Both the position numbers and the translations under genes were made by a program. Positions 4,770 to 61,800 of a DNA stretch of 64,000 bases are shown in pieces (within the stretch, counting starts at the first letter, position 1; every line of letters starts with the position of its first letter). The notes under the pieces were generated by a model. The model saw only the letters and a program-made list of their open reading frames with translations. It was not told the DNA's origin and did no database searches. Source of the DNA: Octopus vulgaris (taxonomy: Eukaryota); contig OX597837.1 in the NCBI GenBank assembly GCA_951406725.2, positions 29,822,001 to 29,886,000 on the forward strand. Reading direction: 5' to 3'.

Positions 4770-4772
<3 letters not shown>
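4240..4772. mobile_element. About 530-bp non-coding interspersed repeat flanked by (TAA)n
   Basis: Reverse-complement copies at about 61850-62175 (partial) and 62200-62750, also bounded by (AAT)n. Confidence 0.75.
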
Positions 4773-4809
<37 letters not shown>

Positions 4810-5006
4810 ATCATCATCATCATTTATGATTTATTATTATTTATTATTTATTATCATTTATTATTATTATTTATTATTATTATTATTATTTTATTTTTAT
4901 TCTTCTTCTTCTTCTTCTTCTTCTTCTTATTATTATTATTAATTATTATTATTATTTATTATTAATTATTATTATTATTATTTATTATTTATTATTATTA
5001 TTATTA

Positions 5007-5039
<33 letters not shown>

Positions 5040-5102
5040 TATTATTATTATTATTTATTATTATTATTATTTATTATTATTTATTATTATTATTATTTAT
5101 TA

Positions 5103-5144
<42 letters not shown>

Positions 5145-5211
5145 TATTATTTATTATTATTTATTATTATTATTATTATTTTATTATTATTATTATTTAT
5201 TATTATTATTA

Positions 5212-5240
<29 letters not shown>
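4772..5240. repeat. Degenerate (TTA)n/(TTTA) microsatellite abutting the gene 1 acceptor
   Basis: Directly visible in the sequence. Confidence 0.95.
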
Positions 5241-5242
<2 letters not shown>

Positions 5243-28017: not shown

Positions 28018-28545
28018 ATGCCCACTATTATACCCGCAGATCCTGATGCAATACCAGATACTGGTGCAATACCAGATACTGGTGCAATACCAGATCCTGA
28101 TGCAATACCCTATCCTAATGTAATACCCGAGTCTAATGTAATAGCTGAGCGTGATGCGTGTTTCGACGGAGACGTGGAAGGAGCTGCTAGCCAAGCCTGC
28201 AGTGAGGACAACGAACAAGACACACCAAAACACAAGGAAACTGACACCCATGTTCAAATTGATGAAGACAGTAAAGATCTACCACCAAAATTGTCATTAA
28301 CCGATGACAATAAACCTGAAGCTGAATGTTTAATTCAAGAAGGAAAAGCTAAAGTAATTTTCAAACCAGGAAGTAGAGCAGTCGACATCGAACAAAACAG
28401 TCCTAAATCAACACCTTCATTGCAACCCCAGGTACCATCAAGCAAAACTAAATCCCTGCAGTCTCTCTTAAAATATTTTCTAATCTCTATTATTCTTCTC
28501 ATTGTTGCGATAACACTGGCGATTATTGCTATTGTCCTATCTCAG
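28018..28545 (+). CDS. TNF-like ligand gene 2, exon 1 (acidic/Pro-rich cytoplasmic tail plus type II TM helix YFLISIILLIVAITLAIIAIVLSQ)
   Basis: ATG start, non-TE ORF of 176 codons ending at a CAG|gtaaac donor (phase 0). The ORF-track extension beyond 28545 is (TATC)n read-through. Confidence 0.8.
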
Positions 28546-34956: not shown

Positions 34957-34987
34957 CGGCAGTATCCTCTACCAGCTCCTCCACTAT
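34957..34987 (+). CDS. TNF-like ligand gene 2, exon 2 (31-nt stalk exon RQYPLPAPPL)
   Basis: Long polypyrimidine tract, ctttag acceptor and gtaagt donor. Phase 0 to 1 links exon 1 to exon 3 in frame. Flanks are homologous to 55977-56016 and 22019-22049. Confidence 0.72.
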
Positions 34988-35987: not shown

Positions 35988-36901
35988 CTAAACATGTCCT
36001 CAATACATTACAGTCTTAAGATAGGCAACTTGAAAAATATCAGACATACTAAAGAAAGAAATAGTAAAAATACCCACATCATTAAATATTTGAATGAAAT
36101 GTCTACAAGGATTAACTGGACCATGGCTTTAGATGACACTTTGATAGGATGAAGCCTCCTGTACATGTTTACTAGAATTGTACTAAACTTGGCACATTTA
36201 TGCACATCATTCGAGCGTGATCGTTACTGAGTCACCTTACTAGCACCTGTGCTGGTGGCATGTGAAACATTCGAGTGAGGTCGTCACCAGTGCCACTGGA
36301 CTGGCTCCTGTGCAGGTGGCACGTAAAAAGCACCATTTGGTCATGGCCGTTGCCAGTATCACCAAACAGGCCCTTGTGCCGGTGGCACGTAAAAGCACCC
36401 ACTACACTCTCGGAGTGGTTGGCGTTGGGAAAGGCATCCAGCTGTAGAAACTCTGCCAGATCAGATCGTCGGAGTCTGGTTCGCCAGACCTCAGTCAAAT
36501 CGTCCAACCCATGATAGCATGGAAAGTGGACATTAAATGATGATGATGAGTCCCAGCAAAGCATCGCTTCTATACAACTGACCATATTAAAGCTCATGAA
36601 ACTACAAGTGATGGGTGTAATATATAGATGTTTATATAGTCTTGGCTCACTTTCATTAATGGTTAATAATTGTTGTCTATGTAGATCATTTTCATTATGA
36701 TAATAATAATTGTGAAACAGTTGATATGTTGTATAGTTATTTATTAGATGATAATCTGAAGTATATATTAGATGATAATCTGAAGTATATATAGGAAATA
36801 CATCAAGAAATGTCCTTTCTGGTTTTAGACTTCTGTTGATATTGAACCTATATTAAAATATATCCTTCTCACTGTCTGCTTTCTCTCTTCTTATCTTTCA
36901 G

Positions 36902-36949
36902 TTCACCATTCCTTCTTTCTCCTAAAAACAAGGGGTTACACTGAGTTAG
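36902..36949 (+). CDS. TNF-like ligand gene 2, exon 3 (48 nt, FHHSFFLLKTRGYTEL)
   Basis: ttatctttcag acceptor and gtaagc donor. Exon and flanks are homologous to 352-399. Confidence 0.8.
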
Positions 36950-38097
36950 GTAAGCTGATTTATACAGATTTATTGCACGCTTTTTCTCATAAGTTGAATT
37001 ATCCCCTTAACCCTTTTGTTACCAACCCGGCTGAAACTGGCTCTGGCTACAAATGTCTTGTTATATTTAATCCTTTCGATACCAAACTGACTGAAACTGT
37101 CTCTAGCTCTGTAGTACAAATGTCTTGTTTTCATAAGTTTTGAATTAAAATATTCCACCAAGCCTTAGTCACAATTTATGTTTCTAACACTAGCTGAATG
37201 ATAACCTACGATCCCTTGACTGCGAGACCACTGCTCTAACCACTAGGCCATGTGCCTCCACTGTTGTTACATGTGGGATGGATCTGTCTATCAATCAAAT
37301 CCATAGTGATGATTGGCCCACCACCTTGCTTTACTGCAGGGGAGGCAGTTTTCCTTTGTTTGTGGGTGATTGCAAAAGCAGTTGTATGATGGACAGGGCT
37401 GAAAGGTATGAGGACAGAGACCTTGGTAGAGCCCCTATTGACTTTTTCAAGTTTTACCTTGAAAAGGAAAGTGAGGATAGAGAGGGAGGTGCTGTCCTTG
37501 AGTGAATCTATTGAAAGGTGGATGAAAATTGTGAAAATAGCAAGAGTGGATGGTACCACTACGTATAGACCTGTGAGCTAGAAAGTAGGAATTGGAGAGT
37601 GTTCTTGCCTTGGGGTTTCTCAATTATCCCTAGAGGTCCTCCTGTATCAGGAAGACCCCATCATCATCCATTTCTTACCCTTCTACTTTCTATTTACTGT
37701 TGCATACTAAGTGTACTTACTCTTTACTCTTTTACTCTTTTACTTGTTTCAGTCATTTGACTGCGGCCATGCTGGAGCACCGCCTTTAGTCGGGCAAATC
37801 GACCCTGGGACTTATTCTTTGTAAGCCCAGTACTTATTCTATCGGTCTCTTTTGCCGAACCGCTAAGTGATGGGGACGTAAACGCACCAGCATCGGTTGT
37901 CAAGCAATGCTGGGGGGACAAACACACACACACATACACATACATACATATATACTTACCTTTGTTTTATTATATACCATGTATACTTTCTTTTTTTTTT
38001 GTTTATTATTTTGTTATATCTAAACCCCCGCACATTATGTCTGTCTTTGAATTGTCCCCCTCATCCTTTGCCCTGTTGGCAAATAAAAGCAATTATT

Positions 38098-41000
38098 CAG
38101 TGGATTATTATTATTACTATTATTATTTCCTTTTCAGATGGATTATTTACAGTAGATTATTATTATTATTATTATTATTTCTTTTTCAGATGGATTATTT
38201 ACGGTGGATTATTATTATTACTATTATTATTTCTTTTTCAGATGGATTATTAACAGTGGATTATTATTATTACTATTATTATTTCTTTTTCAGATGGATT
38301 ATTAACAGTGGATTATTATTATTACTATTATTATTTCTTTTTCAGATGGATTATTTACAGTGGATTATTATTATTACTATTATTATTTCTTTTTCAGATG
38401 GATTATTTACAGTGGATTATTATTATTACTATTATTATTTCTTTTTCAGATGGATTATTAACAGTGGATTATTATTATTACTATTATTATTTCTTTTTCA
38501 GATGGATTATTTACAGTGGATTATTATTATTACTATTATTATTTCTTTTTCAGATGGATTATTAACAGTGGATTATTATTATTACTATTATTATTTATTT
38601 TTCAGATGGATTATTTACAGTGGATTATTATTATTACTATTATTATTTCTTTTTCAGATGGATTATTAACAGTGGATTATTATTATTACTATTATTATTT
38701 CTTTTTCAGATGGATTATTAACAGTGGATTATTATTTCTTTTTCAGATGGATTATTTACAGTGGATTATTATTATTACTATTATTATTTATTTTTCAGAT
38801 GGATTATTTACAGTGGATTGTTATTATTACTATTATTATTTCTTTTTCAGATGGATTATTTACAGTGGATTATTATTATTACTATTATTATTTCTTTTTC
38901 AGATGGATTATTTACAGTAGATTATTATTATTACTATTATTTCTTTTTCAGATGGATTATTTACTGTGGATTATTATTATTACTATTATTATTTCTTTTT
39001 CAGATGGATTATTTACAATGGATTATTATTATTACTATTATTATTTCTTTTTCAGATGGATTATTTACAGTAGATTATTATTATTACTATTATTTCTTTT
39101 TCAGATGGATTATTTACTGCGGATTATTATTATTACTATTATTATTTCTTTTTCAGATGGATTATTTACAGTGGATTATTATTATTACTATTATTATTTC
39201 TTTTTCAGATGGATTATTTACAGTGGATTATTATTATTACTATTATTATTTCTTTTTCAGATGGATTATTTACAGTGGATTATTATTATTACTATTATTA
39301 TTTCTTTTTCAGATGGATTATTTACAGTGGATTATTATCATTACTATTGATGATGATGATGATGATTATTTCTTTTTCAGATGGATTATTTACAGTGGAT
39401 TATTATTATTACTATTATTATTTCTTTTTCAGATGGATTATTTACAGTGGATTATTATCATTACTATTGATGATGATGATGATGATTATTTCTTTTTCAG
39501 ATGGATTATTTACAGTGGACTATTATTATTACTATTATTATTTCTTTTTCAGATGGATTATTTACAGTGGATTATTATTACTATTATTATTTCTTTTTCA
39601 GATGGATTATTTACAGTGGATTATTATTATTACTATTATTATTTCTTTTTCAGATGGATTATTTACGTGGATTATTATTATTACTATTATTATTTATTTT
39701 TCAGATGGATTATTTACAGTGGATTATTATTATTACTATTATTATTTCTTTTTCATATGAATTATTAACAGTGGATTATTATTATTACTATTATTATTTC
39801 TTTTTCAGATGAATTATTTACAGTGGATTATTATTATTACTATTATTATTTCTTTTTCAGATGGATTATTTACGGTGGATTATTATTATTACTATTATTA
39901 TTTATTTTTCAGATGGATTATTTACAGTGGATTATTATTATTACTATTATTATTTCTTTTTCATATGAATTATTAACAGTGGATTATTATTATTACTATT
40001 ATTATTTCTTTTTCAGATGAATTATTTACAGTGGATTATTATTATTACTATTATTATTTCTTTTTCAGATGGATTATTTACAGTGGATTATTATTATTAC
40101 TATTATTATTTATTTTTCAGATGGATTATTTACAGTGGATTGTTATTATTACTATTATTATTTCTTTTTCAGATGGATTATTTACTGTGGATTATTATTA
40201 TTACTATTATTATTTCTTTTTCAGATGAATTATTTACAGTGGATTATTATTATTACTATTATTATTTCTTTTTCAGATGGATTATTTACAGTGGATTATT
40301 ATTATTACTATTATTATTTCTTTTTCAGATGAATTATTTACAGTGGATTATTATTATTACTATTATTATTTCTTTTTCAGATGGATTATTTACAGTGGAT
40401 TATTATTATTACTATTATTATTTCTTTTTCAGATGGATTATTTACAGTGGATTATTATCATTACTATTGATGATGATGATGATGATTATTTCTTTTTCAG
40501 ATGGATTATTTACAGTGGACTATTATTATTACTATTATTATTTCTTTTTCAGATGGATTATTTACAGTGGATTATTATTATTACTATTATTATTTCTTTT
40601 TCAGATGAATTATTTACAGTGGATTATTATTATTACTATTATTATTTCTTTTTCAGATGGATTATTTACAGTGGATTATTATTATTACTATTATTATTTC
40701 TTTTTCAAATGGATTATTTACAGTGGATTATTATTATTACTATTATTATTTCTTTTTCAGATGGATTATTTACAGTGGATTATTATTATTACTATTATTA
40801 TTTCTTTTTCAGATGGATTATTTACAGTGGATTATTATTATTACTATTATTATTTCTTTTTCAGATGGATTATTTACAGTAGATTATTATTATTACTATT
40901 ATTATTTCTTTTTCAGATGGATTATTTACAGTGGATTATTATTATTACTATTATTATTTCTTTTTCAGATGAATTATTTACAGTGGATTATTATTATTAC

Positions 41001-41742
41001 TATTATTATTTCTTTTTCAGATGGATTATTTACAGTGGATTATTATTATTACTATTATTATTCCTTTTTCAGATGGATTATTTACAGTGGATTATTATTA
41101 TTACTATTATTATTTCTTTTTCAGATGGATTATTTACAGTGGATTATTATTATTACTATTATTATTTCTTTTTCAGATGGATTATTTACAGTGGATTATT
41201 ATTATTACTATTATTATTTCTTTTTCAGATGGATTATTTACAGTGGATTATTATTATTACTATTATTATTTCTTTTTCAGATGGATTATTTACAGTGGAT
41301 TATTATTATTACTATTATTATTTCTTTTTCAGATGGATTATTTACAGTGGGTTATTATTATTACTATTATTATTTCTTTTTCAGATGAATTATTTACAGT
41401 GGATTATTATTATTACTATTATTATTTCTTTTTCAGATGGATTATTTACAGTGAATTATTATTATTACTATTATTATTTCTTTTTCATATGGATTATTTA
41501 CAGTGGATTATTATTATTACTATTATTATTTATTTTTCAGATGGATTATTTACAGTGGGTTATTATCATTACTATTATTATTTCTTTTTCAGATGGATTA
41601 TTTACAGTGGATTATTATTATTATTATTTCTTTTTCAGATGGATTATTTAGAGTGGATTATTATTATTACTATTATTATTTCTTTTTCAGATGGATTATT
41701 TAGAGTGGATTATTATTATTACTATTATTATTTATTTTTCAG
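38098..41742 (+). repeat. 52-bp minisatellite array (about 70 units) containing the gene 2 terminal splice acceptor motif
   Basis: Unit gtggattattattattactattattatttctttttcagatggattatttaca repeated continuously. The last unit runs directly into exon 41743. Confidence 0.95.
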
Positions 41743-42116
41743 ATGGACCGACTAATTTACAGTGGATAAAAGATGAGAGCCAGGATCTAGGTAACATCAA
41801 ACTGATTAATGGCAGTTACATTGTTATACCTCAAGATGGGATTTACCAAATAACTTGTGCAGTGCAATTACATTTTCCAGTTGGTGCTCCGCCAGCAGTT
41901 ACAACCATAATGTTGGAGAGAAAGAATAGTGAAAAAGATTATGTGTTCATGAAGAAAAGTTCAAGTTCTTTAAACATAACGGAACATGCCATGATACAAT
42001 TATCATTTAGATACAAACTTACAGTTAATGACGCAGTATTTTTGAGGATGAACCAGGCAAAATTCATCAGCCCCAATAAGCCCTCTAGCTTTTTGTATAT
42101 GAGCAGGTTAAACTAA
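41743..42116 (+). CDS. TNF-like ligand gene 2, terminal exon (THD-like); spliced CDS 981 nt = 326 aa
   Basis: ttttcag acceptor, phase 1. Encodes DGPTNLQWIKDE..IVIPQDGIYQITCAVQL..PNKPSSFLYMSRLN*. It is 374 nt like the gene 1 terminal exon, and the four exons sum to a multiple of 3. Confidence 0.82.
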
Positions 42117-42699
42117 TAATCATCAATGAAATGTTGTTTTGTGATTTAAATTTGAATCTGTGTTTATGTTTAAGCCCTACTTTGGAGAATTCCACTTGAG
42201 TTTATCCTTTTTGTTCTTTGATACTTGATTTAGTTTTTCTTACCTTAATAATACTAAAACTCTATGGATGTTTGTGTGTAACTGACATATTTCAGGAATG
42301 ATATATTTTATCTTTTCTTGATGAAAATACATGGTTTCCGTGACATCAACACACATACACTCATACAGAATACATATAACGAATGTCATGTCATGTCAGT
42401 CAACACAAACACCTGCTCGCTATCTGTGACATATACACACACATCGTCTTTACGCTCTCTAAGAAAAAAGAAGAGTTGATGTACACAATATTTCAATTTT
42501 TTTTTTGTACACAATATTTCAATTATTAAATATATTTTTAACTGAATGTGATTTCATCATCCAGAGTTTGTTAATTTCCATGGAAAGATTTTATTCATTT
42601 ACTTTTGTTTTAAAGTGAGAGAAAAGAGAAAGTGAAAAATTGTATGTACATGTATATGAAATGGATGTGTGTGTGTGTGTGTGTGTATGTGTATGAAAA

Positions 42700-58154: not shown

Positions 58155-58247
58155 CTGAGTTACTGCTACAACAATAGCAATGATCACTGCACATAATACT
58201 GCTAGTACACATAATACTATTAGTACTTCCTTTTTTGTTAATGCCAT
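58155..58247 (-). CDS. TNF-like ligand gene 3, exon 1 (MALTKKEVLIVLCVLAVLCAVIIAIVVAVTQ, signal-anchor)
   Basis: ATG with an upstream in-frame TAG, a 23-aa hydrophobic helix and a CAG|gtaaat donor in phase 0. The IIAIV..Q|gtaaa ending matches gene 2 exon 1. Confidence 0.75.
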
Positions 58248-59130
58248 TTTAGTATAGTTCTAATGTTTTCTAATGTTTAGTATAGTTCTAATGTTTTCTA
58301 ATGTTTAGTATAGTTCTAATGTTTTCTAATGTTTAGTATAGTTCAAATGTTTTCTAATGTTTTCCTTTAGTTTCAATATCAATGACTTTTTCTCTCCCCC
58401 TCTCTATCTATCTTCTCTCTCCCCTCTTGTCTTTCGCTTTCTATCTCCTCCCGTCACTCCTCCCTTTCTCTCTCCCCCTCTCTATCTTCTCTCTCCCCCT
58501 CTCTATCTTCTCTCCCCTCTTGTCTTTCGCTTTCTATCTCCTCCTGTCACTCCTATCTTTCTTTCTCCCCTTCTCTATCTCTCTCCCCCTCTCTATCTTC
58601 TCTCTCCCCCTCTCTGTCTTTCGCTTTCTATCTCCCTCCCTTTCTCTCTCCCCTTCTCTATCTCCTCTCTCCGCCTCTCTATCTTCTCTCTCCCCTCTTG
58701 TCTTTCGCTTTCTATCTCCTCCCATTCTCTCTCCCCTTCTCTATCTCCTCTCTCCCCTTCTCTATCTTCTCTTTCCCCTCTCTATCTTCTCTTTCCCTTC
58801 TTGTCTTTCGCTTTCTATCTCCTCCTGTCACTCCTCTCTTTCTTTCTCCCCCTCTCTATCTCCTCTCGCTCTTTGTCCTTCTCTCTCTTTCTTTCTATTC
58901 TTTTCTATCTCTCCTCCAATCACATTTACTTAATTTACTTATATCCAGTTTTTTTTATAATTTTTTTTTTTTTGCAATTGGCAATAGAAACAGTATCAAT
59001 ACCCTTTCTACTACAGGCACAAGACCTGGAATTTGGTGGGGAGAAGTTTCACTGGTACTCATTTTATTGACCCCGAAAGGACGAAAGGCAAAGTCAAGCT
59101 CAGTGGAACTCAGAATGTAGCTGCTGCCCT

Positions 59131-59149
59131 AACAACAGCAACAGCAACA

Positions 59150-59230
<81 letters not shown>

Positions 59231-59256
59231 CACAACAACAACAGCAACAACAACAA

Positions 59257-59304
<48 letters not shown>

Positions 59305-59317
59305 CAACAACAACAGC

Positions 59318-59406
<89 letters not shown>

Positions 59407-59407
59407 C
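59131..59407. repeat. (CAA)n/(CAG)n trinucleotide tract at the duplication junction
   Basis: Directly visible in the sequence. Confidence 0.95.
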
Positions 59408-60897
59408 TGGTGGTGGTGGTGGACTTGTACACATTACATATAACTACAGAATAGAAGTTGAAATTTCAAAAGCAGGTAAAAGAGAAATTGTGTTATATGA
59501 CTGTATGTGTGTGTGCTTATTGACTAGTTTTCTTTTAGTAATTTATTAAATGACTGAAACAAATATATAAATGAAAATAAATAAAAGACTATCAGTACTT
59601 AATGGGAATAAACTTTTGGTGGACTTGTACACATTACATATAACTACAGAATAGAAGTTGAAATTTCAAAAGCAGGTAAAAGAGAAATTGTGTTATATGA
59701 CTGTATGTGTGTGTGCTTATTGACTAGTTTTCTTTTAGTAATTTATTAAATGACTGAAACAAATATATAAATGAAAATAAATAAAAGACTATCAGTACTT
59801 AATGGGAATAAACTTTTGGTGGACTTGTACACATTACATATAACTACAGAATAGAAGTTGAAATTTCAAAAGCAGGTAAAAGAGAAATTGTGTTATATGA
59901 CTGTATGTGTGTGTGTGCTTGTTGACTAGTTTTCTTTTAGTAATTTATTAAATGACTGAAACAAATATATAAATGAAAATAAATAAAAGACTATCAGTAC
60001 TTAATGGGAATAAACTTTTGGTGGACTAGTACACATTACATATATCTACAGATTAGAAGTTGAAAATTGAAAAGCAGGTAAAAGAGAAATTGTGTTATAT
60101 GACTGTATGTGTGTGTGTGCTTGTTGACTAGTTTTCTTTTAGTAATATACTAAATGACTGAAACAAATATATAAATGAAAATAAATAAAAGACTATCAGT
60201 ACTTAATGGGAAAAAACAGTCCCACTGCATGGCATCTTGGGAAAGTGTCTTCTGCTATAGCCCCAGGATGACCAATGCCTTGTGAGTAGATTTGGTAGAT
60301 GGAAACTGAGAGAAGCCTGTCGTATATATGTATATATATATATATATGTGTGTATGTGTCTGTCCCCCTAGCATTGCTTGTCAACCAATGCTGGTGTGTT
60401 TACGTCTCCTGTCACTTAGCGGTTCGGCAAAAGAGACCGATAGAATAAGTCCAGGGCTTACAAAGAATAAGTCCCGGTGTCGATTTGCTCGACTAAAAAA
60501 GGCGGTGCTCCAGCATGGCCGCAGTCAAATGACTGAAACAAGTAAAAAAAGAGTAAAAAAAGAGTAAAAAAAGAGAGTAAAACAAATCCATTTATCTGCC
60601 AGTTATTTGGAAACAAAGTCGTTGGTGGAGTTATCATATGTAAGAATGCATAATCCTTTTTCTATTATTGGCACAAGGCCTGAAATTTTGTGGTGAGGGA
60701 AATATTCGATTAAATCAACCCAGCGCTTCACTGGTACTGGTTTTATCAACCCCGGAAAGATGGAATGTAAAGGCAACCTCAGAAGCATTTGGACTCAGAA
60801 AATAAGAATGGACAAAATGTTGTTAGACATTTTGTCCGGCGTGCTGACCGTTCTGCCTACTTGGCACCTTTGTCGAAAGTAATTAAAAAGAATTTAC

Positions 60898-60990
60898 CTG
60901 AGTTACTGCTACAACAATAGCAATGATCACTGCACATAATACTGCTAGTACACATAATACTATTAGTACTTCCTTTTTTGTTAACGCTAT
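60898..60990 (-). pseudogene. Duplicated copy of gene 3 exon 1 with start codon ATG>ATA
   Basis: Near-identical to 58155-58247 at offset 2743. The donor is intact, but the first codon reads ATA and the upstream in-frame TAG is retained. Confidence 0.7.
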
Positions 60991-61800
60991 TTTAGTATAG
61001 TTCTAATGTTTTCTAATGTTTAGTATAGTTCTAATGTTTTCTAATGTTTTCCTTTATTTTCAATATTAATGACTTTTTCTCTCCCCCTCTCTATCTATCT
61101 TCTCTCTCCCCTCTTGTCTTTCGCTTTCTATCTCCTCCCTTTCTCTCTCCCCCTCTCTATCTTCTCTCTCCCCTCTTGTCTTTCGCTTTCTATCTCCTCC
61201 TGTCACTCCTATCTTTCTTTCTCCCCTTCTCTATCTCTCTCCCCCTCTCTATCTTCTCTCTCCCCCTCTCTGTCTTTCGCTTTCTATCTCCTCCCTTTCT
61301 CTCTCCCCTTCTCTATCTCCTCTCTCCGCCTCTCTATCTTCTCTCTCCCCTCTTGTCTTTCGCTTTCTATCTCCTCCCATTCTCTCTCCCCTTCTCTATC
61401 TTCTCTCTCCCTTCTTGTCTTTCGCTTTCTATCTCCTCCTGTCACTCCTCTCTTTCTTTCTCCCCCTCTCTATCTCCTCTCGCTCTTTGTCCTTCTCTCT
61501 CTTTCTTTCTATTCTTTTCTATCTCTCCTCCAATCACATTTACTTAATTTACTTATATCCAGTTTTTTTTATAATTTTTTTTTTTTGCAATTGGCAATAG
61601 AAACAGTATCAATACCCTTTCTACTACAGGCACAAGACCTGGAATTTGGTGGGGAGAAGTTTCACTGGTACTCATTTTATTGACCCCGAAAGGCAAAGTC
61701 AAGCTCAGTGGAACTCAGAATGTAGCAGACAAAATACCCCAAAGCATCTTGCCTGCCGGGCTAACGATTCTGCCAGCTTGCTGCCCTGCCCTGCCCTCCC

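Follow-up and report, generated by a model that had tools for sequence, protein, structure and literature searches.

The window, that is, the whole 64,000-nt stretch of Octopus vulgaris DNA analysed here, contains a four-exon gene of the TNF family whose last intron holds a long tandem array (Table 1). The units of this array repeat the last intron-exon boundary of the gene itself, a configuration known from lancelets under the name of mirage. We call decoys the 65 spare junctions of the array that end in AG, as opposed to the real acceptor of the last exon. The four exons had GT-AG ends, were all open and in phase, and gave a product of 326 aa; read from the sequence, a hydrophobic stretch closes exon 1 and is a candidate for the single N-terminal membrane segment of a type II layout.

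Table 1. Features of the array-bearing TNF-family gene, in window coordinates.
Feature	Position	Strand	Basis
Exon 1, coding part (putative start codon, N-terminus rich in acidic residues, then a hydrophobic membrane segment; GT donor in phase 0)	28018..28545	+	Open frame, GT donor, joined frame free of stops
Exon 2, 31 nt, AG...GT	34957..34987	+	Last 30 letters precede exon 3 in the X1 contig
Exon 3, 48 nt, donor 36949; last intron opens in phase 1	36902..36949	+	Covered exactly by the X1 contig
Terminal 3' part of a high-copy element (probable retroelement)	37965..38097	+	40/40 scored matches (1172 candidates), most ending at query base 129-134
Mirage array, ~70 x 52 bp, 65 spare AG acceptors	38098..41747	+	TRF, motif count
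TAG in the TNF frame, unit 68; sole stop barring 11 in-frame decoys from the TNF domain	41649..41651	+	Scripted reversion
Off-frame TAG of unit 69, without effect as a stop but creating an in-frame AG	41701..41703	+	Scripted reversion
Authentic 3' splice site AG	41741..41742	+	Sole unit acceptor of 66 reaching the natural stop; homologues join without insert
Last exon, coding part, TNF homology domain	41743..42116	+	PF00229 match, dN/dS
First poly(A)-type hexamer (ATTAAA) past the stop	42525..42530	+	Likely signal defining the terminal exon

The last exon matched PF00229 over 41745-42113 with 28.5 bits against a cut-off of 23, and its dN/dS was 0.25-0.53 versus nine of ten paralogues and 0.89 versus the other one. 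The junction between exons 1 and 2 was placed from the genomic frame and the GT donor, not from RNA letters. Within the 384 kb of the TNF cluster, exon 1 had no other match and the terminal 30-mer of exon 2 had no second match within 7 mismatches; homologues of exon 3 were found at 14 places in the cluster. An 18-bp coding repeat occurs in about six copies in exon 1 (28037-28143). TNF-like genes 1 and 3 carry AATAAA right after the stop; gene 2, the host of the array, has a one-base variant there (42117-42135), and the hexamer at 42525, further from the stop, is therefore its likely poly(A) signal. A sense-strand AATAAA belonging to the 3' end of the high-copy element, located in the last intron just before the array (38082-38087), is a possible intronic poly(A) site.

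A search of the genome for TNF domains gave 16 matches, mostly clustered on contig C24, with some on C28. The acceptors were compared at 14 of these 16 loci, L015 and L016 being downstream pieces of L014 and L013, respectively. The other members of the Octopus TNF-homology-domain cluster share the exon layout of the host gene, including a short penultimate exon joined directly to the TNF exon, but none of the 13 other last-exon acceptors in the genome was preceded by an array (1/14 with the host gene). For six or seven of the last-exon acceptors, this recurrence test used a second AG lying 2-3 nt downstream; its outcome should be insensitive to such a shift. The named homologues all came from Octopus bimaculoides and Octopus sinensis and were uncharacterised or THD/TNF proteins (6 of 17 matches looked up), and the annotated Octopus homologues joined their last two exons directly, without an insert (9 of 17 matches read). 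Identity was 39-64% for the 11 best matches; an annotated protein of this very gene was not found among them, the best match being at 64%. Other homologue searches gave 1 match among 120 candidates, 0/3, and, for exon 1 alone, 0/7205.

Several other peculiarities were observed in this cluster. The 48-nt exon 3 (window 36902-36949) is identical to an exon at G000:C24:29934378-29934425, with near-identical flanks, the TNF domains of the two genes being just 40% alike; this is possibly the result of gene conversion or exon shuffling within the cluster. A neighbouring TNF paralogue (window 58155-61010, minus strand) has its membrane-segment exon and donor twice, 2.7 kb apart, the upstream copy without ATG, and the next paralogue has its membrane-segment exon three times at a spacing of ~2.3 kb, plus partial copies (G000:C24:29896725, 29899005, 29901272). 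These repeated exons are a donor duplication on a larger scale. Stops or frame breaks interrupt the TNF exons of L013/L016 (G000:C24:29891107-29891471) and L014/L015 (G000:C28:10094074-10094438), which are probably pseudogenes. Finally, in two other paralogues the same acceptor is immediately preceded by a very long (ATT)n tract, of ~470 nt in one (4772-5242) and ~1160 nt in the other (L005 319-1478).

TRF delimited the array with a period of 52, 70.9 copies and a score of 5743. It contains 70 junction motifs, in agreement with the first-pass annotation, which had described about 70 tandem copies of the 3' splice site of the gene. Sixty-six of them end in AG (the 65 decoys and the real site at 41742), the four others ending in CAT (three) or CAA (one). 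In the 52-bp unit, ~32 nt come from the end of the intron, with its ATT tract, its pyrimidine tract and the CAG, and are followed by ~20 nt of altered exon start. It is thus indeed a copy of the acceptor of the gene, but not an exact copy of the exon start as had been stated, since three bases stand in place of eight exon bases. The 60 full-length units differed on average by 1.5% from the commonest unit. The units fell into 29 distinct types whose succession was ordered: blocks of 2-4 units were duplicated, and some variants were specific to the edges, one of them being restricted to units 68-69. All 32 exact matches of a 32-nt junction pattern in the 2.8-Gb, 227-contig genome were inside the array, and the 17-mer spanning the real acceptor boundary recurred 67 times within 5 kb. 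A dispersed satellite family was discarded, the junction pattern matching exclusively within the array. Both flanks of the array are continuous, and the part of the region that falls in the window is free of N runs.

We next consider what the decoys would encode. By script, none of the 65 decoys reached the natural TNF stop in frame. As annotated initially, an open frame in the TNF frame extends to 41651 (39969-41651, with an ATG at 40017), and the three stops that had been named (the two TAG of Table 1 and a TAA at 41753-41755) are all present. They end 17 of the 65 decoys (11, 1 and 5), whereas the 48 others end at other stops (median, 86 added residues); the role assigned to the named stops holds for the former only. 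Both TAG variants had been thought to block fusions with the TNF domain. Scripted reversion of 41651 let 11 decoys pass to the TNF stop, whereas reversion of 41703 freed none, so that the TAG at 41649 alone matters. The variant in the last unit creates instead an in-frame AG at 41703, 39 nt upstream of the real acceptor; splicing to this AG would add 13 residues and preserve the domain. The proposal that 41742 is the sole acceptor giving an intact ligand is thus correct among the 66 unit acceptors, but its corollary, that every upstream acceptor truncates the protein, is not.

The block of the TNF frame by stops is at the level expected by chance and corresponds to ordinary mutational noise: a stop arises from 45 of the 156 possible single substitutions in the unit, a stop triplet is present in 25 of 69 units, and 716 of 2000 shuffled unit orders were without a productive decoy (P = 0.36). 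An excess of frame-blocking stops over chance, as would be expected of a functional decoy repeat, was not found in these 2000 shuffles, and we rejected the idea of selected stop codons, the same block arising in 36% of the shuffles.

RNA contigs from four runs belonging to four studies were compared with 36800-37300. In all four runs, exon 3 was covered and the flanking intron bins had zero depth. In run X1, a 1348-nt contig with a depth of 2.9 covered exon 3 exactly, and the 30 letters before exon 3 were those of the end of exon 2. The latter having no look-alike in 384 kb, this contig corresponds to spliced RNA of the host gene. In X2, X5 and X12, exon-3 depth could not be assigned to the host gene because of the paralogue with the identical exon, and it was dropped as a measure of expression. 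The X1 contig extends 789 nt beyond donor 36949, a figure given by its length rather than by its letters. A contig assembled from 31-mers should hold no repeated 31-mer. For 64 of the 65 decoys, at most 186 nt can be read before a 31-mer repeats, which excludes them as the acceptor of this contig. The acceptor is therefore 41742, 41690 or the AG at 41703, and the length fits 41742: joined at 41743, a contig with 789 nt past the donor would end at 42531, a single nucleotide beyond the first ATTAAA. The X1 run also contained each of the 62 words sampled from 41743-42400. These observations concern a single contig of low depth from an animal that may lack the array, and contigs drop rare isoforms; with the same reservation, no decoy junction was seen among the loose ends listed in the four runs. 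In at least 20 runs, no less than half of the words sampled from the last exon and UTR were found, a count that bears on presence only; none of the runs listed is on record as RNA.

The local signals do not single out the real site. Six decoys are identical to it from -20 to +3, and 51 carry the commonest 20-mer, which has one pyrimidine more than the real site. Masking of the decoys by hairpins was rejected, five units folding more weakly than 200 of 200 shuffles (z +4.5). An array of micro-exons was also rejected, the only GT of the unit being a poor match to a donor when judged by eye. The sequences downstream are dissimilar: the first 70 nt after the real site are 63% purine and 23% T, against 43% purine and 50% T after a decoy. 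With decoys locally equal to the real site and not hidden by structure, the choice would be made downstream, by exon definition. The last acceptor alone has a real, purine-rich exon after it and is the closest to the poly(A) signal, and would thus be favoured, a decoy being followed by a U-rich repeat without a good donor. The real exon start has two GAR trimers, at the low end of the range of the paralogues (2-7), which weakens the enhancer part of this mechanism. In early tandem-duplication experiments, as retold in a later paper (PMC1557585), the proximal copy of a duplicated site was favoured, which also counts against the choice of the last site.

The array begins where the (ATT)n tail of the high-copy element should be, since the nine other copies inspected all run on into ATT-rich (ATT)n tails. 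ATT tracts also precede the same acceptor in most paralogues. The closest paralogue keeps the eight exon bases, so the unit is a derived form. A family-typical (ATT)n tract abutting the tail of a retroelement may have favoured a duplication across the boundary by slippage or template switching. A slip between the ATT tract and the exon start would have produced the first unit, copying ~32 nt of intron and ~20 nt of exon and turning eight bases into three, and unequal crossing-over would then have expanded it to ~70 copies. The usual turnover of minisatellites accounts well for the blocks of unit types, the divergence of 1.5% and the variant found in units 68-69 only. Tandem repeats abound in the region, with 67 arrays of units of at least 30 bp in 384 kb, and one of 42 paralogous exon boundaries was repeated versus about one (0.96) expected from the local density of arrays; this expectation is rough, all arrays, including those derived from transposons, being treated as randomly placed.

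We thus consider that the array is a tandem repeat of the last intron-exon boundary of the gene and probably a neutral mirage, whose 65 spare acceptors are likely skipped by the spliceosome in favour of the last one. It had been suggested earlier that the array is a decoy device tuning expression or isoforms. This is unsupported, though not refuted: the stops are at chance level, the contig fits the last acceptor, and the class has been published with normal splicing. A leaky array, sending a measurable share of the transcripts to upstream units to make truncated membrane proteins without the TNF domain, with the copy number lowering or tuning the ligand, is unlikely in our opinion. It would be in line with the presence of 65 intact AG sites whose local signals match those of the real acceptor, with the unstructured RNA of the array, with the fact that no decoy yields the TNF domain and with a human intronic VNTR in ABCA7 reported to affect splicing (PMC5954066). 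The stops being in the last exon, such mRNAs would likely escape junction-dependent decay. However, the one long contig fits the last acceptor, the published mirages and the pseudo-sites of human F7 are silent (PMC3087553, PMC3902484, PMC1557585), the array is private to one of 14 paralogues, and the pattern of stops is within chance. We regard as quite unlikely that the number of 70 units sets the output of intact TNF-family ligand by diverting part of the transcripts to truncated membrane proteins ending in a hydrophobic tail of repeats, one base change at 41651 then switching 11 acceptors to long repeat-TNF fusions; if true, the array would be a heritable dial on an immune cytokine.

Two further explanations question the gene or the array itself. 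The array could cripple the allele or the paralogue by mis-splicing or intron retention, the spliced contig then coming from an animal whose array is short or absent. The animal behind the RNA need not carry the long array and the cluster includes broken members (the two TNF exons with stops or frame breaks), but the four exons of the host gene are open and in phase, its dN/dS is below 0.55 versus nine of ten paralogues (a signal that predates the array), and words of the last exon and UTR are present, in terms of presence only, in at least 20 runs; we find this very unlikely. It is still more improbable that the array was inflated or created by the assembler. Its length rests on one assembly, yet the 29 unit types succeed each other in an orderly way, with duplicated blocks and variants at the edges, the flanks are continuous without N run in the window part, and the junction pattern is confined to this locus.

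As a neutral mirage, the octopus array would extend to cephalopods a class described in lancelets. Its 65 near-identical spare sites before a terminal exon form a clean substrate for the study of distal 3' splice site choice, the candidate rules being exon enhancers, coupling to poly(A) and timing. To see in the locus a natural test of how an acceptor is chosen, as had been proposed, is reasonable but not novel, since intron 7 of human F7 and CBS 844ins68 have already served for this (PMC1557585, PMC2630376). The question being old and already testable in these two systems, the gain is modest; the array would matter more only if the use of decoys were real and tied to copy number. No report of a mirage in octopus or molluscs was found in the open-access literature, judged from titles and the beginnings of abstracts.

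According to the two papers describing them, the mirages of lancelets are tandem copies of the 3' end of an intron together with the 5' portion of the following exon, many of which keep the AG, with units of 10-160 bp, regular splicing and unstable length (PMC3087553). The amphioxus genes concerned are Adh3, the globins BflGb6 and BflGb9, troponin C and PGBD5 (PMC3087553, PMC3902484), the last two having been added by the second paper, with splicing undisturbed (PMC3902484). The octopus array is a large new case of this class. Its head-to-tail unit spans the intron-exon boundary of the host, as in BflGb6, its 52 bp fall within the published range of lengths, most units keep the AG while some have lost it (kept at 65 of 69 upstream junctions), and its homogenised interior with distinct edges recalls the repeat turnover seen in amphioxus. 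The differences are the host (a cephalopod instead of a cephalochordate), the number of units (~70 versus 3-6 in BflGb6), the position in the last intron, so that terminal-exon definition applies, and the altered exon part. Moreover, splicing is apparently normal in amphioxus, the octopus counterpart being one contig fitted by length, and amphioxus mirages vary in length between alleles and somatically, whereas the octopus array is known from one assembly.

Human genes offer two other points of comparison, and minisatellites have more generally been reported to reshape young paralogues often (PMC2812944). In F7 intron 7, the splice sites repeated by a 37-bp VNTR are identical, but the authentic site adjoining the exon is the only one in use (PMC1557585). 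As in octopus, a minisatellite lies across an exon-intron boundary and provides several identical splice sites, but F7 concerns the donor side, with 5-9 copies and 50 constructs, and the octopus array the acceptor side, with 65 spare sites and an analysis based on sequence (PMC1557585). In CBS 844ins68, a duplicated intron/exon junction leads to a strong preference for the distal site and to normal mRNA (PMC2630376); the repeated junction is shared with the octopus array, CBS differing by having a single 68-bp duplication (PMC2630376).
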